This document shows, piece after piece, positions 1 through 60,100 of a stretch of DNA of 64,000 nucleotides. The notes beneath the pieces are model-generated. The model did not search any database. It worked only from the letters and a program-made list of their open reading frames with translations, and was not told the origin of the DNA. The stretch lies in assembly GCA_035285805.1 (NCBI GenBank), contig JAYKJE010000021.1, positions 156,956-220,955 on the forward strand, given 5' to 3'. The first letter of the stretch is position 1. The number at the start of each line of letters is the position of its first letter. A program made the translations under genes and the position numbers. The stretch is from a bacterium (lineage in GTDB: Bacteria > Cyanobacteriota > Sericytochromatia > S15B-MN24 > UBA4093).

Positions 1-426
1 CAGCTCGCCCACATGTGGGCGGTGCACTCGACGTGCTCCCGTGCCCGGGTCGGTGCCGTGATCACCACGGGTGATCTGCGCCGAACCGTCGCCCACGGAT
101 ACAACGGCGGCGGCGTCGGGATGGGGGACAACGCCTGTGCCCACGGGGGTACGTTGCCCGGCGCCTGCGAGCACCTGCACGCCGAAGAGAATGCGCTCCT
201 GTTCTGCAACTACGAGGGGCCGAAACTCCTGTTCGTGACCATCGAACCGTGCCTGATGTGCGCCAAGCGCATCGTCAACAAGGGCCAGATCCAGCGGGTC
301 TATTACGGGCGTCAGGCTTACCGCGACAAGCGCGGGATCGAGTATCTCGACCGTGCCCGCATCGAGGTGGTGTACTTCCCGGACCCTGGCTCAGTGGACG
401 GGATTTCGACTGAACAGCGCCCATAG
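1..426 (+). CDS. dCMP (deoxycytidylate) deaminase, 5'-truncated by window edge
   Basis: Zinc-binding cytidine/dCMP deaminase motifs HAEENA and PCLMCAK in the translation. The frame is open from nt 1 (QLAHMWAVH...), so the N-terminus lies upstream of the window. Confidence 0.75.
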   Translation, partial: QLAHMWAVHSTCSRARVGAVITTGDLRRTVAHGYNGGGVGMGDNACAHGGTLPGACEHLHAEENALLFCNYEGPKLLFVTIEPCLMCAKRIVNKGQIQRVYYGRQAYRDKRGIEYLDRARIEVVYFPDPGSVDGISTEQRP

Positions 427-1293: not shown

Positions 1294-1296
1294 GGA

Positions 1297-3560: not shown

Positions 3561-3561
3561 G

Positions 3562-4725: not shown

Positions 4726-4738
4726 GTCGCGTGCTCCC

Positions 4739-5686
4739 TCATCGCACAGCCGCGACGGGCGCGGGCACCGTCTCGTCGGCGAGCCTCACGGCGTACCGGA
4801 GCGCCGTACCGGCCACCTGGTCCTGATCCAGGGTCTCGAGGTAACGCCCCACGACCTCTCCGCGTCGCGTCGTGTAGCTGAGGTACACGCGTGCGAAACC
4901 GGCGATTGTGACGTTCGAGCGGCCCGAGGCCTCGAAGAAGTCCCGGTCCAGCAGGGCGACCGTGATCACCCGCGGGGTGCGCGTGCCGAGCTCGGCCTCC
5001 AGGAAGGACGTGGTGTCTCGCCCGATCAGCTGCTGCAGCGTCGCGGCCGTGGGACCGGCCATGTCTCCTGGTTCCGTGGGGATCATCTCCCCCTTCCTGA
5101 GCGTCCGCCGGGCCCCGTCGAGCAAGCTGGAACGGTAGGTCCGGGCTCCGGGACCATCGATCGCGAGGGCCTGGAAGTTGCCACGGATGTTGCCTGGACC
5201 GCTCCGTTTCAGCAGGATTTCCTCCCCTCGGGCATGTCGCTGGCCCGGCAGCCCCAGGGGACGCAGCCCCTGGGTGACGTCCACGCAATGGAGGTCCGCG
5301 ATCGAGCGAGCCCCGATCGCGAGCTGGCCAGGGCGTTCGCGTTCCGACGGCAGCAATCTCGACAGCTTCCCCACCCAGCTGGCCACGGGAGTGCGAAGCC
5401 GCACCGTCACGCGGCTCCCCTGCGTGATCGTGATGTCACCGTCCGCCGGAAGAAAGCCGTTCTGGCGGGCCAGGTCCCGGACGGCCTTGCGGGCCTGATC
5501 CGGCCCCTGCATCAGCCCCCGGGCACCGGCGAGAGCCGCCGCATCGCAGGCGCTCTGGAGCCGGGTGCGCTCGAGCGTGACGGCTCCCACGTCTGCCACC
5601 AGGCCGAGCACGAGCGTCAGGCCCAGGCCCCAGAAGGCCGTGATGACCATGGTGCTTCCGCATTCGGGATCGTGCATCGGCTTCAC
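4739..5686 (-). CDS. TadG-like pseudopilin/pilus assembly protein with TadE/G-like N-terminal domain
   Basis: N-terminal TM segment followed by ...LQSACDAAALAGARGL..., typical of the TadE/TadG-like family. Overlaps the secretin gene by 4 nt. Confidence 0.55.
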   Translation of the reverse strand: MKPMHDPECGSTMVITAFWGLGLTLVLGLVADVGAVTLERTRLQSACDAAALAGARGLMQGPDQARKAVRDLARQNGFLPADGDITITQGSRVTVRLRTPVASWVGKLSRLLPSERERPGQLAIGARSIADLHCVDVTQGLRPLGLPGQRHARGEEILLKRSGPGNIRGNFQALAIDGPGARTYRSSLLDGARRTLRKGEMIPTEPGDMAGPTAATLQQLIGRDTTSFLEAELGTRTPRVITVALLDRDFFEASGRSNVTIAGFARVYLSYTTRRGEVVGRYLETLDQDQVAGTALRYAVRLADETVPAPVAAVR

Positions 5687-6978
5687 CTCGCGGGGGGGGA
5701 GGGGGACGAGGACGGAGACGTGGAGGAAGTGGCCACGGGTGACGGGGGGGGCATGGTCCCGGAGGTCCCCAGGACGGTGGGGGTCACGAGGATGGCGAGT
5801 TCGGTCTCCTGGTGCTGGTATCGCGTCGATCGGAACAGTTCCCCGAGAATGGGTACGTCGCCCAGGAAGGGGAGCTTCTCCACGAGCTGCGAGCTGACGT
5901 CCTGCAGCAATCCCCCGATGGCGAGGCCCTCGCCCTGGGCCAGCACGACCTGGGTCTGGGCCCGGCGGGTCGTGATGGCCGGAACGACGAAATTGGCCAG
6001 GCGTACGGCATTGGCGACGTCGAGCTGGGAGACTTCCGGGGCGACCTGGAGCGAGACGCGTCCGTCATCCAGCACCTGCGGCGCCATGTCCAGCTTGATC
6101 CCGTAGGGTTTCCATTCGAAGGTGACCTGGTTGAGCTGCTGGCTCACCGGCACCGGGACCTCGCCCCCGGCCAGAAAGCTGGCCTTGCCTCCACTGACGG
6201 CGACCAGCTTGGGTCGGGCCAGGACGCGGGCATCGCCCCGGGCCACGAGCATGCTCAGGCGGGCGGCGATCCGCTCGTAGAGCCCGAAGGCCGTGCCGCC
6301 GAGGTCGGAAAGGGGCTGACCGGCTCGCGGGTTGCGGGCATCAGCCTGGGTGAGCCCCAGGTTGTCGGGCTCGAAACGGTCTTCGCCGTTCGACGAGCGG
6401 TTCATCTGGCCCCACTTGATTCCGAGCTCGTGACTGGCCGTCTTGCCCAGCTCCACCACCTGCACGTCGACCTGGACCTGCTGGACCGAGTCGGCCTCGA
6501 GCAGGTTGACGACCCGCGGGGCGAAGCTCTGGGCCAGCTTTTCCGCCTGCTGGGCCTGGCTCGTTCGGGCCACCCGACCCGTCAGCAAGACGGTGTCCTG
6601 GACGACCTGGACGCCGAGACCCCGGGCGCCCGTCACCCGGGCGATCGTGTCCTTCAGGAGGCTGGCGTCGAGACGCACCGAGACCTCGTACCGGGTCAGG
6701 CCCCGCTCCGTCCAGACGAAGCAATGGGTGCTACCGGCCCGCTTGCCGTTGACGAGCACGGCGTGACCGTCGAGGACCGCAACGTCCGCGATCGTCGGGT
6801 CCGTGACCGAGACTTTCGTGATGCGCGGCCCCGATCGGACGACCTCGGAATGCCCGACGTCCAGAGGCAAGGACATCGAGGCGATCGCCTCGGTACCCTG
6901 TGCCCTGGCGGGCGTCCAGGGGTGGAGGGTGATCCACAGGCATGGCAGGATCCAGCCGCGCAGCGTTCTGGAATTCAA
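5683..6978 (-). CDS. cpaC: Flp pilus secretin CpaC/RcpA
   Basis: Signal peptide, BON-like N-terminal region and a C-terminal secretin domain (LARPKLVAVSGGKASFLAGGEVPVP... VTPTVLG). Confidence 0.85.
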   Translation of the reverse strand: MNSRTLRGWILPCLWITLHPWTPARAQGTEAIASMSLPLDVGHSEVVRSGPRITKVSVTDPTIADVAVLDGHAVLVNGKRAGSTHCFVWTERGLTRYEVSVRLDASLLKDTIARVTGARGLGVQVVQDTVLLTGRVARTSQAQQAEKLAQSFAPRVVNLLEADSVQQVQVDVQVVELGKTASHELGIKWGQMNRSSNGEDRFEPDNLGLTQADARNPRAGQPLSDLGGTAFGLYERIAARLSMLVARGDARVLARPKLVAVSGGKASFLAGGEVPVPVSQQLNQVTFEWKPYGIKLDMAPQVLDDGRVSLQVAPEVSQLDVANAVRLANFVVPAITTRRAQTQVVLAQGEGLAIGGLLQDVSSQLVEKLPFLGDVPILGELFRSTRYQHQETELAILVTPTVLGTSGTMPPPSPVATSSTSPSSSPSPPAR

Positions 6979-7823
6979 CGGTTCACCTCTTCTGTTTGGG
7001 TGCCGCGGATGACGAGGATCCCCCGGGGTGCGGAAGGACGCTCGACGACCCGGACGGTCACGGGGACCCGGACGGGTACCCGGACCACGCGCTGGGCAGG
7101 CCCGGAATCGGGGGCCCGACGCGGGACCCCGAGCAGCGTATCGGGAGTCACCCCGGACGTCCTGGCCGTGCTGCTTTCGGCGTTCGAACGCATGGCGAGC
7201 CTGATCTTGCCGCGGTCGGCGGCCAGGATGAGACGTTCGGTGTCGGCCGGGGTCACGGCTAGCGTCGCCGACGACACCACCCGGGCGCCCTCACCGGAAG
7301 CCCGGTCGGCCTCCTGGGCGCAAGCCAGGACCCGGACGCGCTGGAGGAGGAAGTGCGTCGTCGTTTCACCCTCGACGTCCATCGTGCTCACCACGTCGAC
7401 CACCATGCCGGGTTGAACGAATCCCGCCACCCCGACGACCTCGTCGACGGCGACGGTCACGGCACGCATCCCGGGCGGAACGGGCAAGATCGCACGTTCC
7501 CTTTGACCGCGTGGCCAGAGGTGTTCCTCGAGCACGGGTTCTCCGGGAACCAGAGCGATGCGTCCCGAGCGCCCGATCAGGCCCTCGATCGAGTCCGTGG
7601 CTCCTGCCGGGGTGAAGCGTTCCGGGCGATCCTGCAGGGTCAGGTCGCGCGGGCCGATGGGTTCGTTCGGGGCCACGGTACGCAGGGCCACGACGACGGG
7701 GCGCGTGGCCTCCGGTGCGGCCTCGGAGGCCTGGACGCGGCTGAACCACCAGGTCATGCCGGCGCTCGAGGCGAGTCCGAGCCCGGCGGCGATGACGATC
7801 CGGGGAATGCGAACGGGGTTCAT
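6975..7823 (-). CDS. cpaB: Flp pilus assembly protein CpaB/RcpC
   Basis: N-terminal membrane anchor and CpaB-like composition. Overlaps the secretin gene by 4 nt, directly downstream of the tadE-like gene. Confidence 0.75.
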   Translation of the reverse strand: MNPVRIPRIVIAAGLGLASSAGMTWWFSRVQASEAAPEATRPVVVALRTVAPNEPIGPRDLTLQDRPERFTPAGATDSIEGLIGRSGRIALVPGEPVLEEHLWPRGQRERAILPVPPGMRAVTVAVDEVVGVAGFVQPGMVVDVVSTMDVEGETTTHFLLQRVRVLACAQEADRASGEGARVVSSATLAVTPADTERLILAADRGKIRLAMRSNAESSTARTSGVTPDTLLGVPRRAPDSGPAQRVVRVPVRVPVTVRVVERPSAPRGILVIRGTQTEEVNR

Positions 7824-8209
7824 GGAGCCTCCTGGCGCATCGTGGCCGTGGCGGCGAGCCAGAGCGGGACGGGAAGCCCGGGGATGCGCACGGTCACCTC
7901 GAGCGGGTGATCGAGCCGGACCTGCACGTCGGACCCGTCCGACGAGCGGGGGTGGCCGATCGATACCCGGGTCCCGGTGGTCTCGATCCCCGCACCGGAC
8001 AGGTACGCGAGCGTCGTCTCGCGCACCCGGCCGTCGGGGCGACCGAGGGCGCCCAGCCGGGCACCCTCGCGGGCAGCATTCGTGAGCACGAGCTGGGTCC
8101 CGAAAATCTGTCCCAGGGCGAAGATCCCCGTCACCAGGGCCAGGACCAGGGGCAGGGCCAGAGCCGTCTCGACGGTGGCCTGGCCAGAGACATCAGCAAG
8201 TCGCATCAC
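7820..8209 (-). CDS. tadE: TadE-like pilus assembly protein
   Basis: TadE motif ...ATVETALALPLVLALVTGIFALG...AREGARLGA. Start is GTG at 8209 or ATG at 8206. Confidence 0.7.
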   Translation of the reverse strand: MMRLADVSGQATVETALALPLVLALVTGIFALGQIFGTQLVLTNAAREGARLGALGRPDGRVRETTLAYLSGAGIETTGTRVSIGHPRSSDGSDVQVRLDHPLEVTVRIPGLPVPLWLAATATMRQEAP

Positions 8210-8218
8210 GTGTTTCCG

Positions 8219-8392
8219 TTACTTGCTGGTGCTGCTCAGCGTGTTGGCGATTGCTGATAGCATCTTGTTGACATTTGTGCCCATCATGGTCAGCGCACCG
8301 ACCGTCACGACGGCGATGAGGCCCAGGATGAGTCCGTACTCGGTCAGCGCCTGGCCGTCCTCGTCCCGGATGAAGTTCGCGAGCATGGTCAT
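8219..8392 (-). CDS. flp: Flp family type IVb pilin
   Basis: 58-aa product MTMLANFIRDEDGQALTEYGLILGLIAVVTVGALTMMG... with the Flp signature G/XXXXEY followed by a hydrophobic helix. GGAGGAG ribosome-binding site 6-7 nt upstream of the ATG at 8392. The ORF track's longer N-terminal extension is unlikely. Confidence 0.8.
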   Translation of the reverse strand: MTMLANFIRDEDGQALTEYGLILGLIAVVTVGALTMMGTNVNKMLSAIANTLSSTSK

Positions 8393-8474
8393 GGGGGATC
8401 TCCTCCTCGGTGGGGGGTGGGGGGCGAACGAGACCATCATCGTCGGCACGCGTGACGTCGCTTTCACGCTCGCG

Positions 8475-9380
8475 TTACGGCAGCTTTCGGATGTCCGTCA
8501 GGCGAGTCCAGGCGACCTCGACCTCGAGGGCGAGTCTCTCGAGTTCGCGGACGCCCCGGAGCCGGGTGCTCGCCCGCTCGAAGAGCCGAAGCCTCGCCCC
8601 GTGCTGGAGTCCGGCGTGCATGAGGGCTTTCAGCGTTGGCTCGCCGAGGCTCGCCCGGACCCCCGCGGGAAGGGTTTCCAGGATGGCTCCTGCTTCTCCC
8701 TCGATCCCCGTCAGTCGCGAGAGCACGCGATCGAGCAATTCGACCGGTGCCGAGGCACGGGCCCTCACCCGCAGGACGTGGTCATAGAAGGCAATCTCGG
8801 GGGCCAGTCGCTTCACGTGCATCGACAGGTCGGGCGTCCGGAGCACGAATCGCGGCTCGCGTCTCCCGCGGACGACATCCTCGATGTGGAAGCATCCGAG
8901 GTCCATCGCCGCCACGAAGTGCCACTTCAGTCCGAATCTGCGGTGCTGGACCAGGAAGGCATGGACATCCGCATCGGAGAGCCAGAGGAGTTGCTCGATG
9001 CGCCTCCGGACGGTGCGCAGGTCGCTCGAGTAAAGCACCGGGTGCGTGTGAAAGGCGCCCAGTTCCGCATGGACGAGGTCGTGGGGGCGGCAGCGATAGC
9101 GGACTCCGATCGTTCCGGTTCCCGGCGCCCGGACGGTCGCGGTCGTGAGGTTCTGGTACTCGAGGATCCGGTCTTCACAACCTCCCATCATCCCGGCCCG
9201 CTCGTCGAAGACCGGCAGCCGACGATGAAGGGATGAGGCGGAGGCAGTCAGGGTGTTGAGCATGCTCAGCCCGAACTCGTCGATGAGCCGGGCATGCATC
9301 GAGGCCGAAACGCGCAAGGGTTCTCCAGGGTGCACGGACGGAGGGGATCCGTTCCAAGGGGTATCCATCCTGGAGATCAC
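8475..9380 (-). CDS. hypothetical cytoplasmic protein (301 aa), first gene upstream of flp and divergent from dam
   Basis: Long ORF with GTG start (or ATG at 9368). No recognisable motifs. Coding-like codon bias. The promoter region is the GATC-rich AT-rich intergenic segment. Confidence 0.5.
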   Translation of the reverse strand: MISRMDTPWNGSPPSVHPGEPLRVSASMHARLIDEFGLSMLNTLTASASSLHRRLPVFDERAGMMGGCEDRILEYQNLTTATVRAPGTGTIGVRYRCRPHDLVHAELGAFHTHPVLYSSDLRTVRRRIEQLLWLSDADVHAFLVQHRRFGLKWHFVAAMDLGCFHIEDVVRGRREPRFVLRTPDLSMHVKRLAPEIAFYDHVLRVRARASAPVELLDRVLSRLTGIEGEAGAILETLPAGVRASLGEPTLKALMHAGLQHGARLRLFERASTRLRGVRELERLALEVEVAWTRLTDIRKLP

Positions 9381-9516
9381 GTGTTATTGTAAACATCGAG
9401 TTACGGAGACATCGATCACAGAGCACATTTGATCTATTGATCACATATTTCTGTCGATCAGCGTGATCAAATGTCTCCAGATGATCGTTGGCACTTACCC
9501 GGAGGACCCCCCGCGC
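9375..9516. promoter_or_regulatory. AT-rich divergent intergenic/promoter region with a dense cluster of seven GATC (Dam) sites
   Basis: GATC at about 9375, 9414, 9431, 9439, 9456, 9465 and 9483, including repeated TGATCA half-palindromes. About 85 bp of under 40% GC inside a roughly 70% GC genome. Lies between the 301-aa gene (start 9380, minus) and dam (start 9517, plus). Confidence 0.6.
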
Positions 9517-10347
9517 ATGGCCCGTACACGTTCCCTGTCTCTCCCCACCAAGGCGCAGCCCTTCCTGAAATGGGCGGGGGGGAAGACTCGCCTGCTGGCC
9601 CAGTTCGAGCCGATGTTTCCGCGGCGGTTCCGGCGCTACCACGAACCCTTCATCGGGGCGGGAGCCGTGTTCTTCCACCTGCAGGCACGCGAGGCCTTCA
9701 TCTCGGACACCAATCCGGACCTCATCACGTGTTACCAGGTCCTCCAGGCGGACCCGGCCAGCCTGATCGAGGTGCTCCGGTTGTACCGTCATGATCGCGA
9801 TTTCTACTATCACGTTCGCGATCTCGATCCCCGCGAGCTGAGTCCCGTCCAGCGGGCCGCGCGGATGATCTTTCTCAACAAGACCTGCTTCAACGGCCTC
9901 TGGCGCGTCAACCGGCAGGGGCGCTTCAACGTGCCATTCGGAGATTACAAGAATCCCCGGATCGTCGATGCCGACAACCTGGCTCTCGTTCACGCAGCCT
10001 TGCAGGACGTCCACATCCGGCAGGCCGGGTTCGAGCAGGCCCTGGCCGACGTCGAACGCGGGGATTTCGTGTACCTCGACCCGCCCTATCATCCGGTCAG
10101 CACGACGGCCCGATTCACGAGTTACGGGGCCGATGACTTCCGGGAAGCCGACCAGCGTCGACTCGCGGAGGAGTTTCGTCGCCTGGATGCGCGCGGTGCC
10201 CGGGTCATGCTGTCGAACTCCGACACGCCCCTGGTGCACGAGCTCTATGCCGGTTATCGGCTCGACCTCGTCACCTGCAACCGGGCGATCAACCGGGATG
10301 CCTCCAAGCGTGGCGCCATCCACGAGGTGGTCGTCCGGAACTACTGA
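9517..10347 (+). CDS. dam: DNA adenine methyltransferase (Dam family, GATC-specific N6-adenine MTase)
   Basis: FLKWAGGK AdoMet-binding motif and catalytic DPPY (YLDPPYHP), Dam-like length. GGAGGA ribosome-binding site 10 nt upstream of the ATG at 9517. The ORF track's start at 9463 (GTG) lies inside the AT-rich region. Confidence 0.85.
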   Translation: MARTRSLSLPTKAQPFLKWAGGKTRLLAQFEPMFPRRFRRYHEPFIGAGAVFFHLQAREAFISDTNPDLITCYQVLQADPASLIEVLRLYRHDRDFYYHVRDLDPRELSPVQRAARMIFLNKTCFNGLWRVNRQGRFNVPFGDYKNPRIVDADNLALVHAALQDVHIRQAGFEQALADVERGDFVYLDPPYHPVSTTARFTSYGADDFREADQRRLAEEFRRLDARGARVMLSNSDTPLVHELYAGYRLDLVTCNRAINRDASKRGAIHEVVVRNY

Positions 10348-10543
10348 GGTCGATCCGGAGCCGCTTCCGGGTATCTCTCTTCCGGGGGGAGGGCGATATC
10401 GATGCGTGGTGTTCCCGTGACCTGGAGGGGCCTCTGGCGATCGGCCGTGCTCGCGCTCTGGGCGTTGAGCCTCGTCGCCTGTCGGACGGATGTGCGAAAT
10501 TTCTGGGACCTGCCCTAGGCTTCGCGAGGTGGCCCCGGGCGTC

Positions 10544-12092: not shown

Positions 12093-12243
12093 GGGGGTCC
12101 TCCTGCCACTGGACGGTCTGACGAGGGGCTTATCGGACCGGAGATGTTCCAGCTTTCTTAAGTCGGGTTCAAGCCCAGATGAACTCCCGGGTCATGCCAG
12201 GGTTTGACAACCTGCCCTGTCGCACGATAGGCTCCAGATGTCG

Positions 12244-12320
12244 CGGGGCGTAGCGCAGCTTGGTAGCGCATCTGCTTTGGGAGCAGAGGGTCGTGGGTTC
12301 GAATCCCACCGCTCCGACCA
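12244..12320 (+). tRNA. tRNA-Pro (anticodon TGG)
   Basis: Cloverleaf folded by hand. Acceptor CGGGGCG/CGCTCCG, D-arm GCGCAGCTTGGTAGCGC, anticodon stem-loop TCTGC-TTTGGGA-GCAGA, T-arm GTGGGTTCGAATCCCAC, 3' ACCA encoded. Confidence 0.85.
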
Positions 12321-12325
12321 GTCGC

Positions 12326-12397
12326 GCGGGTGTAACTCAGCGGTAGAGTTCCTGCCTTCCAAGCAGGATGTCGTGGGTTCGAATCCCATCGCCCGCT
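12326..12397 (+). tRNA. tRNA-Gly (anticodon TCC)
   Basis: Acceptor GCGGGTG/CGCCCGC, D-stem ACTC/GAGT, anticodon stem-loop CCTGC-CTTCCAA-GCAGG, T-arm GTGGGTTCGAATCCCAT. CCA not encoded. Confidence 0.85.
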
Positions 12398-12414
12398 CTC
12401 ACAGGTCGCTCACG

Positions 12415-12450
12415 CCGAGCCCTCCTCCTGGAGGGCTCGGTTGTTGTTCG
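12415..12450 (+). terminator. hairpin (GAGCCCTCC-tcc-t-GGAGGGCTC) plus TTGTTGTT after the tRNA pair
   Basis: Perfect 9-bp GC-rich stem followed by a T-rich stretch immediately downstream of tRNA-Gly. Confidence 0.45.
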
Positions 12451-12569
12451 AGGACCTCGGGTTCCTGCACGGCTTTGAGAAAATACCATTAAGTTTCCGT
12501 TTGCCCCCGTAAGCTTGCGTTTCGGCGGGGAAAAAACAGGCATGTCGGGACCGGTCAACGGAGAGTGTC

Positions 12570-13367
12570 ATGAGCAGTGCCATCCACGTCATTCCTGATC
12601 CTGCCCAGCTTCTGGCCGAGGCACGTGCTGCGATCGTCAAGAGCCGGTACTTCCAGCACGGCAGGACGGACCGCTACGGCCATGTCGTGGGGTTGCGCGA
12701 GTATCCCGCCGGACGCGTGCCCACGGATCATCAGGTTCATCACTACGACCAGGCCGGGCGAGTCATCCTGTTCGAGAAATACACGAGAGATTTCTCGAAG
12801 CCCACGTATCGACTGTATCGCTATGCTGGAAACGTCATGAACGAGGCCATCTGGATCGACCGCTATGGCCACATCGAACATCATCACTGCTTCCAGTACG
12901 ACCGGGTCACCGGTCAGATGGTCTGGCGGGCCGAGTACCAGCCCGACGGGACGCTGTTCTACAGCGTCGCATCCACCTACGACTCGGTCGGAAACCTCAT
13001 CGAGGATGCCTATTTCGACCGGAATGACGTGTTCGTGAAGCGGGAGGCTTACGAGCACGACAAGGCGGGAGATGTCACCCGCGAACGTTTCTATGACCAC
13101 GAGAATGCCCTGGTGGGGTTCAACACGTTCACCTACGACAAGCAGAGGCGGCTGACCGCTCGCATCTGGCATGGACCGGATGGCGTGCGACGTTCCCGTT
13201 TCGCCTACACCTACGATCGCCAGGACAGGCTGTCTCGTCTCACCGTGTATGGTCCCACCGACAAGAATCCTCTGGTCCAGGAGTTCACGTATGACGACGT
13301 GGGTAGCGTCACCCGGGAACGCTGGATGGAGGCCTCGGGACAGGTCGTCAAGGAACTCGTCTTCTGA
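12570..13367 (+). CDS. YD-repeat (Rhs/teneurin-type repeat) protein, 265 aa, no signal peptide
   Basis: At least six YD-type repeats (HYDQAGRV, YDSVGNL, YEHDKAGDV, YDKQRRL, YTYDRQDRLSRL, YDDVGSV). No Rhs core or toxin domain. The AT-richer region 12476-12545 upstream is a likely promoter. Confidence 0.7.
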   Translation: MSSAIHVIPDPAQLLAEARAAIVKSRYFQHGRTDRYGHVVGLREYPAGRVPTDHQVHHYDQAGRVILFEKYTRDFSKPTYRLYRYAGNVMNEAIWIDRYGHIEHHHCFQYDRVTGQMVWRAEYQPDGTLFYSVASTYDSVGNLIEDAYFDRNDVFVKREAYEHDKAGDVTRERFYDHENALVGFNTFTYDKQRRLTARIWHGPDGVRRSRFAYTYDRQDRLSRLTVYGPTDKNPLVQEFTYDDVGSVTRERWMEASGQVVKELVF

Positions 13368-13402
13368 GGCCTGCCGGTCTCACATTTCCCCCTGGAGGAG
13401 CC

Positions 13403-14479
13403 ATGAGCGATATCTCGGGTATCGATCCCATCAAACAGACCGTCAAGATCAATGCGGCGGCGATCGCCGCCGCCGCGGCGTCCGCGCAAGCCGTGCCCGG
13501 GGCCACCGAGGCCCCTGCCCGCGATCAGGTCAGCATCCAGACATCCGATGCGTCCGACCTGGGCCTGGGGGAAGCCGCAGGTCCCGGGGGGCAGCGCGGG
13601 CGCATCCTGCCCGAGGCCGCTCCTGCCGATCTCATGTCGGCCATCGGTAGCGCTCCCGTCGCGAGCGCGATGCCGGGGATGAGCGCTCCAGGCAAGTCGA
13701 TCGAGGTGCCACGACCCAAGCCGGCCCCCCCCATCCAGTCCACGCCTCGGTCGGACGTGCCCTCGAGCGTGTCCTACAGCTCTCCTTCCTCGGTCAAGCC
13801 CGAACCGCGCTATCTCGACGTCCAGGGCTGCACCGGCATGGGGGCCGCCTCGGGGAAGTCTTACAAGGTGCTCGAGAGTGATGCGATCGCCATGTACTCG
13901 CTGCTCAAGGAGAAGCCCCTCTGGAAGATGGATGAACTGAAGTACGCCCTCCAGGCCTACTTCGGGATCGAGGCCGAGGTGACCAAGGTGGATGGCCGCA
14001 ACGCCATCGTCGGGACCGACGGACGCATCATCGCTGTCGACACGGAGGGCAACGGGGCGATCGACATCAACGATCTCCAGTTCGGTCAGGCCCTCTCTGC
14101 GGCAGGCGTCGACATCTCGCAGATCAAGAGTGCCAGCGAGATGATGAAGGACCGTCTGAACGCGATGAATCTCGCGCTCAAGGTGTCGGAAGATCTCCAG
14201 AAGATGAACCAGGAGATCGCGGAACGCGAGATGACGATGGCCTCCATCCGAGCCAGCGCGGAAGCCGCCGATGCGAAGGCACGCGGTGCGGCTGCCGCGG
14301 TCGCAGCTTCCGGCCTGACCTCGGTGACCCCGTCCTCGAATCCGGGTTCTTCGTCGTCCTCGTCCTCGTCTTCGCCGTCGCCAGGGGCCTCGTCCGCCGG
14401 CGCGGCGGCCGCTGCGGCGGGGGCGTCGGCCGCCGCAGCACCGTCGGCACCTTCCGGCGGTGGTAAGGGAATGGCCTGA
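13403..14479 (+). CDS. hypothetical protein (358 aa) with Ala/Ser/Pro-rich N- and C-terminal low-complexity regions
   Basis: ORF 35 nt after the YD-repeat gene. Its stop overlaps the next start (ATGA). The C-terminus is SSSSSSSSPSPGASSAGAAAAAAGASAAA. Confidence 0.55.
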   Translation: MSDISGIDPIKQTVKINAAAIAAAAASAQAVPGATEAPARDQVSIQTSDASDLGLGEAAGPGGQRGRILPEAAPADLMSAIGSAPVASAMPGMSAPGKSIEVPRPKPAPPIQSTPRSDVPSSVSYSSPSSVKPEPRYLDVQGCTGMGAASGKSYKVLESDAIAMYSLLKEKPLWKMDELKYALQAYFGIEAEVTKVDGRNAIVGTDGRIIAVDTEGNGAIDINDLQFGQALSAAGVDISQIKSASEMMKDRLNAMNLALKVSEDLQKMNQEIAEREMTMASIRASAEAADAKARGAAAAVAASGLTSVTPSSNPGSSSSSSSSSPSPGASSAGAAAAAAGASAAAAPSAPSGGGKGMA

Positions 14480-14757
14480 TGGATACTCCGCTGCTCACCC
14501 GTGCCGAGGTCGTCGAGCGCATCGAGCGCTTCAATGCCTGCCTGGCTCGCGAACACGAACTCAAGAAGAAGCTGGTCACCATGAAGATCCGCGGCGATTT
14601 CCAGCGCGTGCGCGAGATGATGTCCGAGCACGACGCCCTCATCGCCGAGATCAGTCGCATCCAGCTCGAGGAGATGGTGCCCATCATCGTGGAGCTGGAC
14701 CGTTTCACCAAGGCAGGCCTCGCCGTCCTGGAAGCCTACAACCGTGACAAGTCGTAA
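14479..14757 (+). CDS. hypothetical small helical protein (92 aa)
   Basis: Start overlaps the upstream stop (ATGA). The downstream rSAM gene begins 14 nt before its stop, so it is translationally coupled on both sides. Confidence 0.5.
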   Translation: MDTPLLTRAEVVERIERFNACLAREHELKKKLVTMKIRGDFQRVREMMSEHDALIAEISRIQLEEMVPIIVELDRFTKAGLAVLEAYNRDKS

Positions 14758-16588
14758 AGCCCTGCTGGTCTTTCCCCCGCAGTGGACCCCCCAGAATCCG
14801 CACTTCGCCCTGCGCGCTCTGGCGGGTCACCTGCGGGCCAACGGTATCGAGGTCGCCGTGCGCGACCTCAATGTCGAGTACTACGATTCCATCCTGACGC
14901 CGGAAAGCCTCTCGCTGGCCCGGGATCGGATCCGTCTGGACCTGGAGTACCTCGGATATCAGACCATCATCCGGCAGATGATCGACGAGCAGAGCCACCA
15001 GGCGGACGTCGACGCAGCTCGGTTCATGGCCATGAAGCGATTCGAGGACAACCATCCCGGTGCCCTCGATCGCCTGCCGGGCCTGATCCTCGACGCGAAG
15101 GAGACTCTCCGCGATCCACGCCGCTATTACAACCCGGATTACCTGATCGACGCGTTCCGGACCATCGATCTGGCGTTGCAGGCCCTGTCGTTGCCGTACC
15201 ATCCGGCCAACCTCTCGTACATCTACTTCGACCAGCCGGATGCCCGGTTCACGATCCGCACGGCGCACGAGTTCGCCAGCTCACCCACGGCGAACATGTT
15301 TCATGCGTTCTTCGAGGCGCAGATCGATTCGCTCCTGGCCGAGGAGGCATCCTACATCGGCATCTCGATCAACTCGTTCTCCCAGGTGCTGCCGGGCCTC
15401 ACGCTGGCGCACATGCTGCGGAAAGCCGCGCCGCCCGGTGTCCATATCGGACTGGGGGGCAATCACCTGGGGCGCGTCAAGGAGACGTTGCTCGAGAGAC
15501 CCGATTTCTTCGAGTTTTTCGCCCACAGTCTCGCGACCAGCGAGGGCGAGCAGCAACTGGTCCACATGGTCCAGGCCCTCGTGGACGGACGGAGCCTCGA
15601 GGATGTCCCCAACATCTTGTATGTCGGCGAGGACGGCGTGCCCCGGGCCTCGAAGGCGGCGAAGCCGCCGCAGATGGACCGGATCGGTCACCAGGACCTG
15701 GCCGGTCTGCCCATGGACCTCTACTTCTCCCCCGAGCCCTTGCTGACCATCCAGGCCAGCAAGGGGTGCTACTGGGGTAAATGCTCGTTCTGCGATTCGT
15801 TCTTCGGAGTCGATCTCGACTTCAAGTCGATCGACAAGCTCGTCGCCGAGATCCGTCATCTCAAGGAGACCTACGGCGTCCGGTTGTTCCAGTTCATCGA
15901 CGAGGCGCTCCCACCGAACTACATGGAGGCGATGGCCCGACGCTTCATCGAGGAGAAGCTGGACATCCAGTGGTTCAGCAACGGACGCCTCGAGACGGGC
16001 TTCACCCCGGAGCTCATGAGCCTCCTGCATGAGGCCGGTCTGCGCATGGTCCTGTGGGGATACGAGACGGGGGCGCCGCGCATCCACAACCTCATCAAGA
16101 AGGGGGTGGCGTTCAGCCGGCGCCATGACATCCTTCGCGGGGCGGCAGAGGCGGGCATCTTCAATTTCGCGTACATCTTTTTCGGCTTTCCCTCCGAGAC
16201 CCTCGAGGAGGCAAACGCCACGATCGATGCCATGTGCGAGAACACGGACATCATTCACGCGTACGGACGCTCGGTCTTCACCCTCGGCAAGCAGAGCCCG
16301 CTCTACGCCGATCTGGAGAAGAACGGAGACATTCTCGAGGCCGTCGTGGACATCGAGGATCTGTCGTCCAACATCTCGTTCAAGACCCGTGGTGGCATGT
16401 CCGACGAGGAACTGCATGCGGTCATGAAATCGTGCACCACCCGGTGCGCCGAGGCCTATGACCACGCGCTGTGGTTCTACCTCCGGAGCCGGGAGAACAT
16501 CCACTACTACCTGGCCCGGTTCGGGGCCGAGCACGTGCGGAAGGCCACGTTCAAGCGATTCCATGCCCAGCCCGTCGAGCAGGCCTGA
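14744..16588 (+). CDS. B12-binding domain radical SAM protein (class B rSAM-like) with variant CX4CX2C cluster motif
   Basis: N-terminal B12-binding-like region (KALLVFPPQW...). Fe-S motif KGCYWGKCSFCDSF. Elongated TIM-barrel-like rSAM core. 614 aa. Confidence 0.8.
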   Translation: MTSRKALLVFPPQWTPQNPHFALRALAGHLRANGIEVAVRDLNVEYYDSILTPESLSLARDRIRLDLEYLGYQTIIRQMIDEQSHQADVDAARFMAMKRFEDNHPGALDRLPGLILDAKETLRDPRRYYNPDYLIDAFRTIDLALQALSLPYHPANLSYIYFDQPDARFTIRTAHEFASSPTANMFHAFFEAQIDSLLAEEASYIGISINSFSQVLPGLTLAHMLRKAAPPGVHIGLGGNHLGRVKETLLERPDFFEFFAHSLATSEGEQQLVHMVQALVDGRSLEDVPNILYVGEDGVPRASKAAKPPQMDRIGHQDLAGLPMDLYFSPEPLLTIQASKGCYWGKCSFCDSFFGVDLDFKSIDKLVAEIRHLKETYGVRLFQFIDEALPPNYMEAMARRFIEEKLDIQWFSNGRLETGFTPELMSLLHEAGLRMVLWGYETGAPRIHNLIKKGVAFSRRHDILRGAAEAGIFNFAYIFFGFPSETLEEANATIDAMCENTDIIHAYGRSVFTLGKQSPLYADLEKNGDILEAVVDIEDLSSNISFKTRGGMSDEELHAVMKSCTTRCAEAYDHALWFYLRSRENIHYYLARFGAEHVRKATFKRFHAQPVEQA

Positions 16589-16589
16589 C

Positions 16590-18173
16590 GTGGCGCCGGG
16601 GCGATCGGTCTCGTTCTCCCTCCGGGTGGCATGTGCCATCCTCCTGGTCACGGGATGCACGACTGCGGTCCTTCCAGGCACGGGGTCGCCATCCCGCGGG
16701 CAGACACCATCATCGGTGGGCGAGGACGCACGTTCCGTGTCCGTCTCGGGGCAGGTTCTCGGGGAGGATGGAGTCCCCGTGGCCGGGGTGCGCATCCGGA
16801 TCTATCCGGCACCGGAGGATCCGCTCAAGACGGTGGCCCCGCTTCGCACGGTCGCTCCCCTGAAAAGCGTGGCTCCCTACCGCGCCCTCGCTGCCACCGA
16901 CGCCCGTGAGACCGTGACCGATGAGTCCGGGCAATACCGGATGGCGGGGCTTGCCGGGGGGCCCTGGGCCGTGCTGGCCGAGCAAGGTGATCGCCTCAAG
17001 GCCTTTGCCCGGATCGAGGTGGGTGATGGCGCCCCTCCGGGCGTCTCCTTGCGCCTTCAGCCGACCGGTGGCATCCGCGGGGTGGTCACGGCACCCGACC
17101 AGCCCCTCGTGAACGATTTCACGCGGGTGGAAGTGTTCGTCCCCGGTTTACCGTACGTGGTCCGACCTTCCGAGAACGGGACCTTCCTGATCACCGGATT
17201 GCCCGTCGGAGATCACGTGCTGCGCGCTTACCGCGAGGGCCTCGGTGAGGCCGGACGGGGCGAGGTCAGGGTCGAACCCGGCGGGGTCACGGACGTCGGG
17301 GCGATGGTGCTCACCCGGAGGGTGCCGCGTCTGACTCGCCTCGATCCCCCGTACGTGCCAGAAGGCGGCGTCTTGCGGCTGGTCGGCGAGAACCTGGGCA
17401 TCCAGACGGGAGATCCCTTCCAGGTGTACATCGACGGGAAGGTCGTCCGTGGCGCCAGGGCCATCGATGCGGCCACGATCGAGGTGCCAGTCACGTCGGG
17501 CGTGGCTTCCGGCAAGGTCTTCGTCACGGTGGGCTCCCTCGAGAGCAACGAACTGCCGTTCCAGAAGATCGTCGACCTCGCGATCGGCGTTCCGGACGGT
17601 GCTCTCGCCCTGTCGCTCGGGCAAACGCGACGGATTCCCACCGCCATCGGGATTCCGGACGATGGCTACGAACCGGTACACCTGGCCGTCGGTCCGGTCT
17701 GGACCCTCTCGGGAACCGCGGCTACCATGGACGCGGATCGGGTGCTGCGGGCGGTCCGGGAGGGGGACGGCGAACTCTCCCTCACGTGGGGGGAGCTCCG
17801 GGCCACCCGGAACATTCGCGTGTATCCGTCGGATTCGTGGACACCCTCTGCGCTCGTCGGGCAGCATCTCGTCTTGGGGGATGACGATGGACCCGCGGAT
17901 CGAGCGTTCCTGCGCGGCCCGTCGCAACTCGTCTTCGATGCTCGCGGGCGTCTCATCCTCGCAGATGAAAACCCTTCGGAAGACGGCGAGACCTTCGACC
18001 CCGGTCCGGAGGCGAGCCGGCTTCGCATCCTGGACGATGGGGTCCTGCGCCCCTGGAGCGTGCACCTCCCGGGCGGAGAGCCCTTCTCGTTCGTTCAACC
18101 TCGCGGCATGGCCTCGCGCCGGACGGTGGCGTGCTGGTCGCAGACGCCGGTTTGCAGCAAGTCTACCGCGTGA
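16590..18173 (+). CDS. lipoprotein with two CarboxypepD_reg-like domains, an IPT/TIG domain and NHL repeats (5' portion; reading frame appears disrupted near 18110)
   Basis: GTG start 2 nt after the rSAM stop. Signal peptide with lipobox LLVTGC. Motifs VSGQVLGEDGVPVAGVRIRIY, TDESGQYRMAGL (CarboxypepD_reg), GGVLRLVGENLG (TIG), and PSQLVFDARGRLILAD (NHL). The track's ATG at 16458 lies inside the rSAM gene. Confidence 0.7.
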   Translation: MAPGRSVSFSLRVACAILLVTGCTTAVLPGTGSPSRGQTPSSVGEDARSVSVSGQVLGEDGVPVAGVRIRIYPAPEDPLKTVAPLRTVAPLKSVAPYRALAATDARETVTDESGQYRMAGLAGGPWAVLAEQGDRLKAFARIEVGDGAPPGVSLRLQPTGGIRGVVTAPDQPLVNDFTRVEVFVPGLPYVVRPSENGTFLITGLPVGDHVLRAYREGLGEAGRGEVRVEPGGVTDVGAMVLTRRVPRLTRLDPPYVPEGGVLRLVGENLGIQTGDPFQVYIDGKVVRGARAIDAATIEVPVTSGVASGKVFVTVGSLESNELPFQKIVDLAIGVPDGALALSLGQTRRIPTAIGIPDDGYEPVHLAVGPVWTLSGTAATMDADRVLRAVREGDGELSLTWGELRATRNIRVYPSDSWTPSALVGQHLVLGDDDGPADRAFLRGPSQLVFDARGRLILADENPSEDGETFDPGPEASRLRILDDGVLRPWSVHLPGGEPFSFVQPRGMASRRTVACWSQTPVCSKSTA

Positions 18174-18850
18174 GTGCCGACGGCGAGGTGACCCTCGTGG
18201 CCGGATCGGGCGATGAAGGCTTCACGGACGGGCCGGCACTCGCGGCGCGTTTCTCGAATCCCTGGGCGATCGCCGTGGCGTCCGATGGCCGGATCGCCGT
18301 GAGCGATCTCGGCAACCATCGCATCCGGCTCATCGTGAACGGGGCCGTCTCGACTCTTGCCGGGACGGGTCAGGATGCGCTCGTCGATGGGCCTGTCGGA
18401 ACGGGGTGCCTGCATCAGCCGTACGGGCTGGCATGGGCTCCTGATGGCGTCCTCTGGAGCTCGGATGTGGGGGGGAACTGCCTGCGAACCATCGATCCAG
18501 CGGGCGACATCCGGACCGTCAGCCGCAAGGTGGGGCTACTCGACGGGCCCCTGCTCGATGCCCTGTTTGCGTCTCCCACGGCTGAAGGTCCGCTCGGCGA
18601 GGTCGATTTTCGCTGGCCATACGGCATCCGTTTCGACCGGGAGGGCACACTCTGGGTCTGCGACTGGCAGAGTACCCTGATCCGGCGCGTGAAGGACGGC
18701 CTCGTGTCGACCGTCAAGAGACGGGACAGGGAGTTCGTCGAAGGCTTGCCCTTTCAGGGAATCACGGGGAACTACGCGATCGACTTCGATCCGGACGGTC
18801 ACGCGGTCGTCAACAACGTCTGGTGGCACACGATCATCCGTCTGCAGTGA
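18131..18850 (+). CDS. NHL-repeat protein, probably the 3' continuation of the 16590 lipoprotein gene after a frameshift
   Basis: NHL repeats (APDGGVLVADAGLQQVYRV, PWAIAVASDGRIAVSDLGNHRIRLI, PYGLAWAPDGVLWSSDVGGNCLR, PYGIRFDREGTLWVCDWQSTLIRRV). The frame is open upstream to 17969 and, joined with the upstream frame, reconstitutes a perfect NHL repeat. Confidence 0.65.
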   Translation: MLVADAGLQQVYRVSADGEVTLVAGSGDEGFTDGPALAARFSNPWAIAVASDGRIAVSDLGNHRIRLIVNGAVSTLAGTGQDALVDGPVGTGCLHQPYGLAWAPDGVLWSSDVGGNCLRTIDPAGDIRTVSRKVGLLDGPLLDALFASPTAEGPLGEVDFRWPYGIRFDREGTLWVCDWQSTLIRRVKDGLVSTVKRRDREFVEGLPFQGITGNYAIDFDPDGHAVVNNVWWHTIIRLQ

Positions 18851-18856
18851 CAGGTC

Positions 18857-19861
18857 TCAGGTTGCCGAGCGCACGACCAGGTAGCTCTTGACGAGGCGTC
18901 CGTCCGTGCGAGTCTCGGCCTTGCCTGGGACGAGCATGTGGCTCGAACCCCCACCGTCGAGTGCGTAGGCTTCCACGGCGCCGAGGCGCTTCAGCAGGAG
19001 CGCGCCCTCGGCCATGTTGCCGCCGGCCCCGCGATTGCTGCCCTCGCCCAGCGTCACGGCCAGGAGTCGTCCCTGGGCATCGAGCCCCACGAAGGTCCGG
19101 GCGATCGAACTGGCCAGGTCGACGTTCGGGAAGCTCCGGTCGGCCACGCCCCGGTCGAGCCGAGCCCGGAATGCGCCGGTTTCGACGTCGCGTTCGAGCC
19201 GCACGGCCTCTTCGGGACCGAACAGGCGCCCCAGGCCACCGATGAAGCCCTTCACGTCCTGGCGAGCCAGACCCGACTCGACCAGCCCACCCTTCACGAA
19301 CCGGAGGCTGCCATCCTCGAGGGAGGCCAGAGACCAGCGGCGATCGCTGATCTGGTCGTAGCCGCGATTGGGATTGTCCTCGTCGAGAACCGCTTTCCCC
19401 AGGCCCACCAGATCGCCGTAGGTGGCTTCGCCCTGACCCATGCCGAAGAAGGTCGCGTTGACGGCAGCGAGCATGCCCGGAATCTGCCGGATCGCCGAGG
19501 GGGGGACGCCCGTCTTGCCGTCGTAGAAGCCGGCTTCTACCTTCACCTGCCGGGGATCGATCAGCAGCACCCGTGCCAGGGAGCCGTCCGCGGTGCGACG
19601 GGTATCATCCAGCCAGAGGCCCGGGACGACCTCGACCCGCTTGCGGGTGAAGCCCATGAAGCCCCCCATCCAGTCCATGAACCGGAGCACGGGAGAGGGC
19701 CATTCGAAGCGAAGCAACCGTTCGCGCGTGCTCTGGCTCGTTCCGAAGCGAGCGATGTCGCGGGCGGGGGCGCTGGCTGCCCGGAAAGACCCTCCGGACG
19801 CTCGTGGGGCTACTCCTGACGGATGGGCTGTCCGGGGCGGGGCATCGAGACGGGACACCAT
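18857..19861 (-). CDS. phosphodiester glycosidase family protein (NAGPA/DUF2233-like)
   Basis: Family-typical LDGGGSS motif and FFGMGQGEATYGDLVG region. Start uncertain (the N-terminus of the ORF is Arg/Ala-rich, so an internal Met start is likely). Confidence 0.65.
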   Translation of the reverse strand: MVSRLDAPPRTAHPSGVAPRASGGSFRAASAPARDIARFGTSQSTRERLLRFEWPSPVLRFMDWMGGFMGFTRKRVEVVPGLWLDDTRRTADGSLARVLLIDPRQVKVEAGFYDGKTGVPPSAIRQIPGMLAAVNATFFGMGQGEATYGDLVGLGKAVLDEDNPNRGYDQISDRRWSLASLEDGSLRFVKGGLVESGLARQDVKGFIGGLGRLFGPEEAVRLERDVETGAFRARLDRGVADRSFPNVDLASSIARTFVGLDAQGRLLAVTLGEGSNRGAGGNMAEGALLLKRLGAVEAYALDGGGSSHMLVPGKAETRTDGRLVKSYLVVRSAT

Positions 19862-51729: not shown

Positions 51730-51749
51730 AGACTGGGGACTTCGATACC

Positions 51750-60093: not shown

Positions 60094-60100
60094 GGTTGCC

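Follow-up and report, generated by a model that had tools for sequence, protein, structure and literature searches.

A subfamily of probable cobalamin-dependent radical SAM enzymes with a conserved set of partner genes in several bacterial phyla

Introduction

Class B radical SAM enzymes attract interest for their ability to methylate unactivated carbons. A gene in a 64,000-nucleotide stretch of a Sericytochromatia genome (contig JAYKJE010000021.1, positions 156,956 to 220,955; hereafter the window, meaning the whole stretch analysed) was initially annotated as a B12-binding radical SAM enzyme with the cysteine spacing CX4CX2C, which was held to be rare and possibly the mark of a distinct subfamily. 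We therefore asked whether this spacing is new, and what the enzyme and the genes beside it may do.

The window encodes a radical SAM enzyme, very probably of class B

14744..16588, + strand: gene of the B12-type radical SAM enzyme (614 aa), with a GTG start and a 14-nt overlap with the stop of the upstream gene

The start is shared by a 97%-identical homologue, also of 614 aa. A profile HMM comparison gave the enzyme 59.5 bits against Pfam Radical_SAM (cut-off 29.5), and fold comparison of its AF2 model (pLDDT 91.6, pTM 0.91) returned TsrM, MgmA, CysS, TokK and OxsB as top matches, so the protein has both the radical SAM profile match and the partial TIM-barrel core fold. When the PDB was searched with the family profile, OxsB came first (E 1.5e-15), in an alignment that covers the B12 domain and the core and in which the cysteine motifs fall in register, as does G-x-S-x-N. 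These results bear out the initial annotation of a radical SAM enzyme whose N-terminal domain is of the B12-type Rossmann kind; the N-terminal sequence that it quoted was also correct. The three N-terminal-domain cysteines of a MiaB/RimO-type second cluster are absent from the window enzyme.

Against NCBIfam, the best matches were methylases, all below cut-off: TIGR03975 (RiPP C-methyltransferase; 102.8 against a curated cut-off of 281.85), the P-methylase PhpK (TIGR04479; 102 against 600) and ApyD (NF050148; 75.2 against 750). HpnJ (TIGR03471; 73.6 against 577.6), HpnR and a ladderane-type lipid protein were also matched weakly, and no curated NCBIfam subfamily had a threshold that the enzyme passed. 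Its Pfam B12-binding score was 19.1, under the cut-off of 32.1, which several family members exceed. Because the enzyme lies under the Pfam B12-binding cut-off and far under all NCBIfam cut-offs, it has no characterised orthologue; it belongs to an uncharacterised subfamily of class B radical SAM enzymes. Its own placement in class B (cobalamin-dependent) is very probable from sequence comparison.

The CX4CX2C spacing is common to a large clade

15767..15793, + strand: C342-YWGK-C347-SF-C350 (CX4CX2C), the predicted [4Fe-4S] site, which aligns with OxsB SRGCDYSRCTFC
15896..15904, + strand: I385-D386-E387, putative equivalent of the 'GGE' SAM motif at the end of core strand 2, assigned by position only

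The cysteine motif, in its context SKG-C342-YWGK-C347-SF-C350-D, had been described as the sole three-cysteine motif of the enzyme, and this is the case. The protein has six cysteines in all (342, 347, 350, 498, 564 and 568), so that the protein contains no hidden CX3CX2C. We estimated the expectation of a chance C-x4-C-x2-C in 614 residues at ~1% Cys to be ~6e-4. The motif was present in 120/120 best homologues, in 138 of 147 representatives (50% identity), in 254 of the 255 full-length members of the family-profile alignment, and in 8/9 sampled distant relatives that are encoded on plasmids of cultured bacteria. Cys342, Cys347 and Cys350 align column for column with the cluster cysteines of the OxsB crystal structure. 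The cysteine loop (residues 341-360) was modelled with lower confidence (pLDDT 74-78), which we regard as normal in a model built without cofactors. Conservation and alignment thus strongly support Cys342, Cys347 and Cys350 as the predicted site of the [4Fe-4S] cluster that would bind and cleave SAM. The putative GGE equivalent follows model strand 381-384 and has A361-D362-E363 as its OxsB counterpart, at a point where the HMM alignment to OxsB is off by a few residues; D386 is kept in 252/255 members and E387 in 208/255. The pair C564-x3-C568 was considered as an auxiliary cluster site and rejected: it occurs in about half of the family, with no third or fourth cysteine.

The claim of rarity did not hold. 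CX4CX2C is seen in the crystal structure of OxsB, a solved cobalamin radical SAM enzyme (PMC9204698), and is documented in archaeal Elp3 (PMC2996862), in one RadicalSAM.org megacluster (PMC9477430) and in GenD1 (PMC4340712), which has the same spacing but acts on an aminoglycoside. Queuine lyase (PDB 6P78) has near-identical motif letters, C-IWGK-C-SF-C-D, in a protein of 251 aa that matches only the radical SAM core (query 335-464). By contrast, MgmA/QCMT (9ccb) carries CX3CX2C and shows a one-residue gap when aligned to the window enzyme, and the one TIGR03975 member inspected carries CX7CX2C. Since OxsB, GenD1, queuine lyase, Elp3 and 8/9 sampled relatives have it in common, CX4CX2C is, as judged by these alignments, the mark of a large clade and not of the window enzyme's subfamily. 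Being structurally documented in OxsB, the spacing adds no novelty. The less ordinary aspect of the locus is the conserved set of partner genes beside the enzyme, not the cysteine spacing.

The N-terminal domain carries the motifs of His-off cobalamin binding

14744..15643, + strand: N-terminal Rossmann-like domain, predicted to bind cobalamin (residues 1-300)
15359..15373, + strand: G206-I-S208-I-N210, the 'downstream Cbl-binding motif', which aligns with G182-x-S184-x-N186 of OxsB
15455..15463, + strand: G238-G239-N240, Gly-Gly motif on strand 4, predicted dimethylbenzimidazole-tail pocket (motif as in PMC9204698)
15542..15550, + strand: E267-G268-E269, Gly-Glu motif at the start of B12-domain helix 5, placed by conservation and the OxsB alignment

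The strands of the Rossmann-like domain are predicted at residues 5-10, 36-41, 204-208, 234-238 and 262-264, and a helical insertion of ~150 residues (42-198) separates strands 2 and 3. TsrM, TokK, CysS and MgmA all lack this insertion, and they act on unrelated substrates and lie in unrelated gene contexts. The downstream motif has the class form G-x-S-x-(L/N/R/W), and in OxsB Asn186 keeps in place the water molecule that serves as lower cobalt ligand; the lower-face residues of TsrM (Arg69) and TokK (Trp76) differ from that of the window enzyme. S208 is conserved in 245/255 members, and N210 in 126/255, the others having S, A, T or V. The Gly-Gly motif was found in 38/38 aligned sequences (G238 in 252/255 and G239 in 255/255 members), and G268 and E269 are each kept in 244/255.

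The initial annotation had also pointed to the lack of DxHxxG, the MetH-type His-ligand motif. It is indeed absent from the whole window protein, and His20, in the loop between strand 1 and helix 1, is conserved in 29/38 sequences only; the absence is in no way peculiar. OxsB, which shares the Gly-Glu motif, also lacks the His ligand, and OxsB, TsrM and TokK bind cobalamin base-off/His-off, DxHxxG having been called 'a bit of a red herring' (PMC9204698). Because the solved enzymes of the class bind B12 with no histidine ligand, the missing motif is normal here. It is strongly supported by the alignments that the N-terminal domain carries the three motifs which hold base-off/His-off cobalamin in the solved enzymes.

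The enzyme gene is accompanied by conserved partner genes

12570..13367, + strand: gene of a cytoplasmic YD/Rhs-repeat protein (265 aa; weak RHS/YD matches), the first gene of the operon
13403..14479, + strand: gene of the EF-loop protein (358 aa), whose ends are of low complexity and whose central domain (~120 aa) is conserved
14039..14074, + strand: D213-TEG-N-G-AIDIN-D224 of the EF-loop protein, an EF-hand-like putative calcium-binding loop (D213 and G216 invariant, n=67)
14479..14757, + strand: gene of a small all-helical protein (92 aa), translationally coupled on either side

The enzyme gene is the last of a four-gene operon whose genes overlap or abut. Among 58 loci with enough flank, the EF-loop protein adjoins the enzyme gene in 52 and the small helical protein lies beside it in 51, plus four fusions (in L003 and L011-L013 it forms a single protein with the EF-loop protein); in ~35 loci, homologues of the 92-aa protein are directly 5' of the enzyme gene. 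The YD-repeat gene adjoins the enzyme gene in 20/58 loci, from Sericytochromatia, Chloroflexota, Bacillota, Armatimonadota, Vulcanimicrobiota and Myxococcota. These results strongly support the EF-loop and small helical proteins as core partners that accompany the enzyme in several phyla.

Of the features of the EF-loop protein, the EF-hand-like loop alone is nearly universal. The protein matches no family in Pfam or NCBIfam; weak EF-hand Pfam matches occurred in 11/67 members. The homologue search for this protein returned 3, then 9 proteins, because a word prefilter performs poorly with a low-complexity family. The 92-aa protein likewise had no match in family databases, and none of the partner proteins matched PqqD. 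We considered it as a long-leader precursor peptide and set this aside, unproven either way: its C-terminal tails are 6-50 residues long, charged and unconserved, and have no cleavage or core pattern. A small helical protein of ~119 aa lies 3' of the enzyme in Vampirovibrionia; with an hhalign probability of 0.7% it was rejected as a homologue, and it resembles the 92-aa protein by position and size only. An apparent enzyme-YD fusion in L027 (a 1024-aa ORF) was also rejected, since this ORF runs out of frame through the high-GC enzyme gene into the YD gene.

A PADLOC scan of the four operon proteins for anti-phage defence gave zero matches, and a simple scan of 12100-19000 found no promoter-like site. 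The local context of the operon includes the envelope genes BacA and NAGPA and Tad pilus genes. The locus is of interest as a member of a large uncharacterised B12 radical SAM subfamily that is linked by gene context to three partner proteins outside known families. If the partners are substrates, this would be a new protein or peptide modification for the class, and it would give a function to several hypothetical-protein families.

A sister clade carries a peptide-recognition domain

Clustering at 50% identity divides the subfamily into at least 150 groups, and it forms part of a superfamily of ~48,000 representatives; 4,873 representatives reached E <= 1e-30. Its members are found chiefly in little-studied lineages, gut Melainabacteria among them, and some of these carry up to five copies in tandem. 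In the literature collection searched, no relevant paper on the family turned up for Melainabacteria, Sericytochromatia or Gastranaerophilales. A C-terminal PqqD-like peptide-recognition (RRE) domain is present in 32 of the 147 best representatives, and among the ten representatives scanned against Pfam it exceeded the cut-off in four. This sister clade (e.g. P0161, P0170, P0181 and P0183) shares with the window enzyme the B12 domain, CX4CX2C and a full-length family-profile match (400-520 bits), and differs from it in its C-terminal domain and in sequence (~30% identity). The genes beside distant relatives encode peptidases, an ATP-grasp enzyme, and a DUF692 enzyme accompanied by an ORF of 41 aa.

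Proposed function

The explanation that we favour, and consider probable as a whole, is a class B enzyme whose methylation target is a gene-encoded peptide or protein. The reduced cluster would cleave SAM to a 5'-deoxyadenosyl radical, this radical would take hydrogen from an unactivated carbon, and methylcobalamin, recharged by a second SAM, would then donate the methyl group. The likeliest candidate substrate would be the EF-loop protein, encoded two genes upstream. Methylation is favoured by the best NCBIfam matches, all methylases: ApyD methylates a Tyr C-beta in a peptide, and MgmA, among the top fold matches, a Gln in a protein. For a peptide or protein substrate speak the RRE domains of the sister clade, the neighbours of the distant relatives, the conservation of the EF-loop and small helical proteins as the only steady neighbours of the enzyme, and the overlapping or abutting genes of the operon. 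TIGR03975, ApyD and PhpK resemble the window enzyme in length and in the kind of N-terminal strand-loop-helix start, and ApyD and TIGR03975 members modify ribosomal peptides; unlike these families, the window enzyme has neither an RRE domain nor an NHLP-type precursor alongside. Taken part by part, a peptide or protein substrate is slightly favoured, methylation stands level with all other chemistry, and the EF-loop protein as the specific substrate is a tentative choice. Several observations count against the favoured explanation: OxsB, which is the closest solved relative by sequence and the one with both CX4CX2C and the Asn of G-x-S-x-N, does not methylate; an RRE is lacking in the window enzyme; its Pfam B12-binding and NCBIfam scores lie below the cut-offs; the small helical proteins of Vampirovibrionia correspond to the 92-aa protein in position and size only; and no gene for cobalamin synthesis or uptake was seen among the annotated window genes.

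The first of these leads to an unlikely alternative, in which a cobalamin radical SAM enzyme does not methylate and instead performs an OxsB-like rearrangement or ring contraction, or forms a C-C or C-S bond. OxsB (oxetanocin A biosynthesis; PDB 5UL2-5UL4) is the top PDB sequence match and shares, in register, both CX4CX2C and the G-x-S-x-Asn motif under the corrin, and the residue at the Asn position has been proposed to tune cobalamin chemistry (PMC9204698). However, identity to OxsB is just 14-15%, the Asn is found in only about half of the family members, and most characterised class B enzymes, like the best NCBIfam matches, are methylases. OxsB also has an extra N-terminal domain and contracts the ring of a nucleotide together with the HD-domain protein OxsA; an OxsA-like HD-domain gene was sought among the neighbouring genes here and in related loci and was absent.

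It is likewise improbable that the enzyme acts on a small molecule, a lipid or a component of the cell envelope, with the neighbours as structural or regulatory partners. The weak matches to PhpK and to the lipid and hopanoid families (HpnJ, HpnR and the ladderane-type lipid protein) and the envelope genes nearby speak for such a substrate, as does the lack of a clear precursor peptide of the classical type among the partner proteins. Against it, those envelope genes are not kept beside the enzyme in other lineages, no second enzyme gene was conserved next to this subfamily across the compared loci, and the sister clade has fused peptide-recognition domains.

As AprD4 illustrates, the fold alone is not proof of cobalamin binding, and an enzyme of that kind, with a Rossmann-like domain that no longer binds cobalamin and the 5'-deoxyadenosyl radical as its only reagent, is very improbable here: the equivalents of Ser208, Gly238-Gly239 and Gly268-Glu269 form the cobalamin-tail contacts of OxsB, TsrM and TokK, their conservation in 244-255 of 255 members makes a vestigial site unexpected, and relatives pass the Pfam B12-binding cut-off.

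Returning to modification of a peptide or protein, we tentatively propose a widespread, previously undescribed module of the B12 radical SAM enzyme, the EF-loop protein and the small helical protein, with the YD-repeat protein in some lineages, which may modify the Met/Gly-rich EF-loop protein itself by radical chemistry, probably through C-methylation. This gene set was found in two groups of non-photosynthetic Cyanobacteria relatives, Sericytochromatia and Vampirovibrionia, and in Eremiobacterota, Armatimonadota, Chloroflexota and Myxococcota, and it is expanded into several tandem copies in gut Gastranaerophilales.

Architecture and motif of the enzyme

The enzyme belongs to a known class, of which it is a new member that has yet to be characterised. 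The following features were located, with the Rossmann strands taken from an AlphaFold2 model:

14744-16588, + strand: enzyme ORF, GTG start, 614 aa
15767-15793, + strand: CX4CX2C motif C-YWGK-C-SF-C, residues 342-350, read from the sequence
Residues 5-10 and 36-41: Rossmann strands 1 and 2
Residues 204-208, 234-238 and 262-264: Rossmann strands 3-5

Pfam Radical_SAM matched residues 339-495 with 59.5 bits (cut-off 29.5), and the Pfam B12-binding match was sub-threshold (19.1 vs 32.1), a cut-off that several relatives pass. With a family profile built from 38 members, the closest solved relative was OxsB (E 1.5e-15), the match spanning query residues 191-472, i.e., part of the Rossmann domain and the core. 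The AlphaFold2 model, computed from the family alignment, was confident (pLDDT 91.6, pTM 0.91), and its top Foldseek matches were TsrM, MgmA, OxsB, AprD4, and CysS. In this model the Rossmann domain is split, strands 2 and 3 being separated by about 150 inserted helical residues. Together, the Radical_SAM match, the OxsB profile match and the modelled fold indicate that the predicted architecture is that of a cobalamin-dependent (class B) radical SAM enzyme, as the initial annotation had proposed. A methylthiotransferase was ruled out because residues 1-341 contain no cysteine. No curated NCBIfam family claims the enzyme, and the best matches were all far under their cut-offs (TIGR03975, 103 bits vs 282; PhpK family, 102 vs 600; ApyD, 75 vs 750; HpnJ, 74 vs 578).

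The enzyme contains only six cysteines (342, 347, 350, 498, 564, and 568), and therefore no canonical CX3CX2C was overlooked; CX4CX2C is its sole three-cysteine motif, as first read. All 120 best homologues had CX4CX2C and none had CX3CX2C. At the 50% identity level, 138 of the 147 best representatives carried the motif, the 9 exceptions being 7 giant multi-domain proteins and 2 fragments, and alignment of 255 full-length sequences to the family profile showed all three motif cysteines in 254. Judged from these sequences, the CX4CX2C motif is not a chance feature.

Separately, a C564-x3-C568 pair in the C-terminal helix (window 16433-16447) recurred in 35-36 of the 38 close relatives but, across the wider family, in just about half the members; its cysteines are too few for an auxiliary cluster. 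Among the compared proteins, seven predicted giants of 1500-2331 aa (P0166, P0169, P0188, P0227, P0263, P0267, and P0275) gave 6-8 separate family-profile matches each, and every one bore canonical CX3CX2C motifs; these may be real fusions that join several B12 radical SAM units, or the result of merging separate gene calls.

Spacing in known enzymes and distant relatives

The CX4CX2C spacing had been taken as rare and as a possible mark of a distinct subfamily, a reading that the comparison did not support. In the profile alignment, OxsB SRGCDYSRCTFC aligned with SKGCYWGKCTFC of the enzyme, each column matched, and queuine lyase 6P78 carries C-IWGK-C-SF-C-D. The spacing has also been documented in the solved enzyme OxsB itself (PMC9204698), in GenD1 of gentamicin biosynthesis (PMC4340712), in archaeal Elp3 (PMC2996862) and in one megacluster of RadicalSAM.org (PMC9477430). 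We sampled nine distant relatives, all plasmid-borne in cultured bacteria, and found CX4CX2C in eight (Rhizobium phaseoli, Bacillus cereus, Vitreoscilla filiformis, Sinorhizobium meliloti, Desulfocapsa sulfexigens, Parabacteroides distasonis, Ideonella dechloratans, and Streptomyces sp. N50); the exception was a Streptomyces clavuligerus protein with CX7CX2C, whose annotation is RiPP maturation radical SAM C-methyltransferase. From its occurrence in OxsB, queuine lyase, GenD1, Elp3 and these eight relatives, we infer that CX4CX2C is the marker of a large clade of B12-domain enzymes, an already documented variant rather than a subfamily signature.

Cobalamin-binding motifs

A search across the enzyme sequence confirmed the reported absence of DxHxxG, but this is not a peculiarity, since OxsB, TsrM, and TokK all hold cobalamin base-off and His-off and the Asp-X-His-X-X-Gly motif has been termed 'a bit of a red herring' (PMC9204698). 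Absence of the His motif is the norm for class B. The same review describes three cobalamin-contacting motifs: motif 1, of the downstream G-x-S-x-L type, whose last residue lies towards cobalt (Asn186 in OxsB, Arg69 in TsrM, Trp76 in TokK), and motifs 2 and 3, Gly-Gly on strand 4 and Gly-Glu on helix 5 (PMC9204698). The enzyme possesses all three. G206-I-S208-I-N210 aligned with OxsB G182-x-S184-x-N186, and neither G238-G239-N240 nor E267-G268-E269 varied across the 38-sequence alignment. Among 255 members, S208 was kept in 245, Gly238 in 252, Gly239 in 255, and both G268 and E269 in 244. At position 210, 126 of the 255 have Asn and the others Ser, Ala, Thr, or Val, a variation that fits the prediction of the equivalent position as a chemistry-tuning hotspot (PMC9204698).

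The loop between strand 1 and helix 1 has ten residues (PPQWTPQNPH), and as its His20 is retained by just 29 of the 38 sequences, a role as cobalamin ligand is unlikely. Cobalamin binding by the enzyme, although well supported at the sequence level, is a prediction; AprD4 has the same fold and is not known to use the cofactor.

A conserved operon with unannotated partners

The enzyme gene is the last in a set of four closely packed genes:

12244-12441: tRNA-Pro(TGG), tRNA-Gly(TCC), then a strong hairpin resembling a terminator (12 pairs, 9 G-C), directly upstream of the operon
12570-13367: 265-aa YD-repeat protein gene, first of the four
13403-14479: 358-aa protein gene, low-complexity ends
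14039-14074: EF-hand-like loop within the 358-aa protein gene
14479-14757: 92-aa helical protein gene, start overlapping the preceding stop by 1 nt
14744-16588, + strand: enzyme gene, overlapping the 92-aa gene by 14 nt

The same gene set reappears, in variable order, in unrelated lineages. Across 58 loci with sufficient flank, a relative of the 358-aa protein lay within 4 kb in 52, a small helical protein lay within 1 kb in 51, the helical protein was fused to the 358-aa protein in 4 further loci, and the YD-repeat protein occurred in 20. The downstream CarboxypepD_reg, NHL, and NAGPA genes were conserved in the closest relatives only. None of the three partners matched a family in Pfam, NCBIfam, or PADLOC, and a literature search of limited reach found no description of the module. 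The locus is of modest interest for these conserved, wholly unannotated partner genes and for the lineages bearing them.

The 358-aa family comprises three divergent groups, which profile comparison connects at probabilities of 95%, 76%, and 43%, and its sole near-universal feature is the EF-hand-like loop, D213-TEGNGAIDIN-D224. Some members contain Met/Gly-rich segments and cysteine runs. Two such EF-loop proteins, P0124 and P0126, contain stretches of 4-6 cysteines in a row (GCFCCCCS, SCCCCCCS) as well as low-complexity segments rich in Met, Gly and Gln, and both finish with a conserved C-terminus, W-M-x-x-F-x-x-A-F-Q-M-A-A; a third member, P0127, has Met/Gly-rich segments and the same C-terminus without the cysteine run, and its gene is followed immediately by genes for an 85-aa protein and a 612-aa radical SAM protein.

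The enzyme and the 358-aa-type partner have both been duplicated in gut Gastranaerophilales. Five enzyme paralogues stand in tandem on one strand in locus L033:21-9815 (MAG 'Cyanobacteria bacterium OH_PDB_230'), the first cut by the locus end; a single EF-loop gene separates copies 4 and 5, and the last copy is followed by a small helical gene. Loci L030 and L038 have two enzyme copies each, in divergent orientation.

Likely function

Among the 147 best representatives, 32 were about 30% identical to the enzyme, carried CX4CX2C and ended in an additional C-terminal stretch of about 100 residues, a PqqD-like RiPP recognition element that scored above the Pfam cut-off in four of ten scanned representatives (P0161, P0170, P0181, and P0183). 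The genes beside distant relatives encode peptidases, an ATP-grasp enzyme, or, together with a 41-aa ORF, a DUF692 enzyme. Those characterised relatives whose substrate is a peptide or protein are methylases: the target of MgmA is a glutamine of methyl-coenzyme M reductase, and the product of ApyD is beta-methyltyrosine (PMC10635010). In the compared loci, no conserved enzyme gene other than the enzyme itself was found nearby. The recognition element of this sister clade, the neighbours of the relatives, the methylase relatives and the lack of another conserved enzyme gene suggest that the substrate is most likely a gene-encoded peptide or protein and the reaction most likely C-methylation. 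The EF-loop protein would be the best substrate candidate, given that no other neighbour is as constant and that it has been duplicated together with the enzyme.

Against this reading, the enzyme has no recognition domain, the partner proteins gave no clear case of a leader/core layout, and the modelled EF-loop domain had no significant fold match. A cobalamin enzyme of the OxsB kind that does not methylate is plausible, given the motifs common to the enzyme and OxsB, and a small-molecule or lipid substrate retains some likelihood. An AprD4-like enzyme independent of cobalamin is unlikely, as the cobalamin tail-binding residues are conserved.

On Bacillus cereus plasmid CP128128.1 (L089:2282-6162), a 41-aa ORF, a CX4CX2C B12-type radical SAM gene and a DUF692 (MNIO-type) gene follow in succession. 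This array resembles a RiPP cluster, as yet uncharacterised, in an organism available in culture, and could be a tractable model for the CX4CX2C clade.

Distribution

The profile search covered 1.84 billion representatives and matched 48,666 proteins at E <= 1e-3, of which 4,873 reached E <= 1e-30, with every score among the best 150 matches above 400 bits. A Candidatus Sericytochromatia MAG locus (L004) was 97% identical. The subfamily was found in Sericytochromatia, Vampirovibrionia (Gastranaerophilales), Eremiobacterota/Vulcanimicrobiota, Armatimonadota, Chloroflexota, Bacillota, Myxococcota, and some Proteobacteria MAGs.

Other observations in the window

Six long ORFs (396-758 aa) in 50670-62285 had no Pfam match at E <= 1e-4, and some may be wrong-frame ORFs in high-GC sequence. 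At 16458-18850, two overlapping ORFs of 571 aa (CarboxypepD_reg domain) and 239 aa (NHL repeats) correspond to a single 753-aa gene on the compared contig L084. L084 is 98% identical to the window overall and more diverged in this region (95% identity, 9 gaps); the split therefore stems from an assembly error or from a frameshift that distinguishes the two sequences. A Tad/Flp pilus gene set occupies 275-10400 on the - strand, with two ATPases annotated in the window:

2214-3560, - strand: T2SSE ATPase
3562-4725, - strand: CpaE/BcsQ-like ATPase

The gene calls of L084 include Flp, TadE, and RcpC, together with a D12 DNA methyltransferase and BacA.
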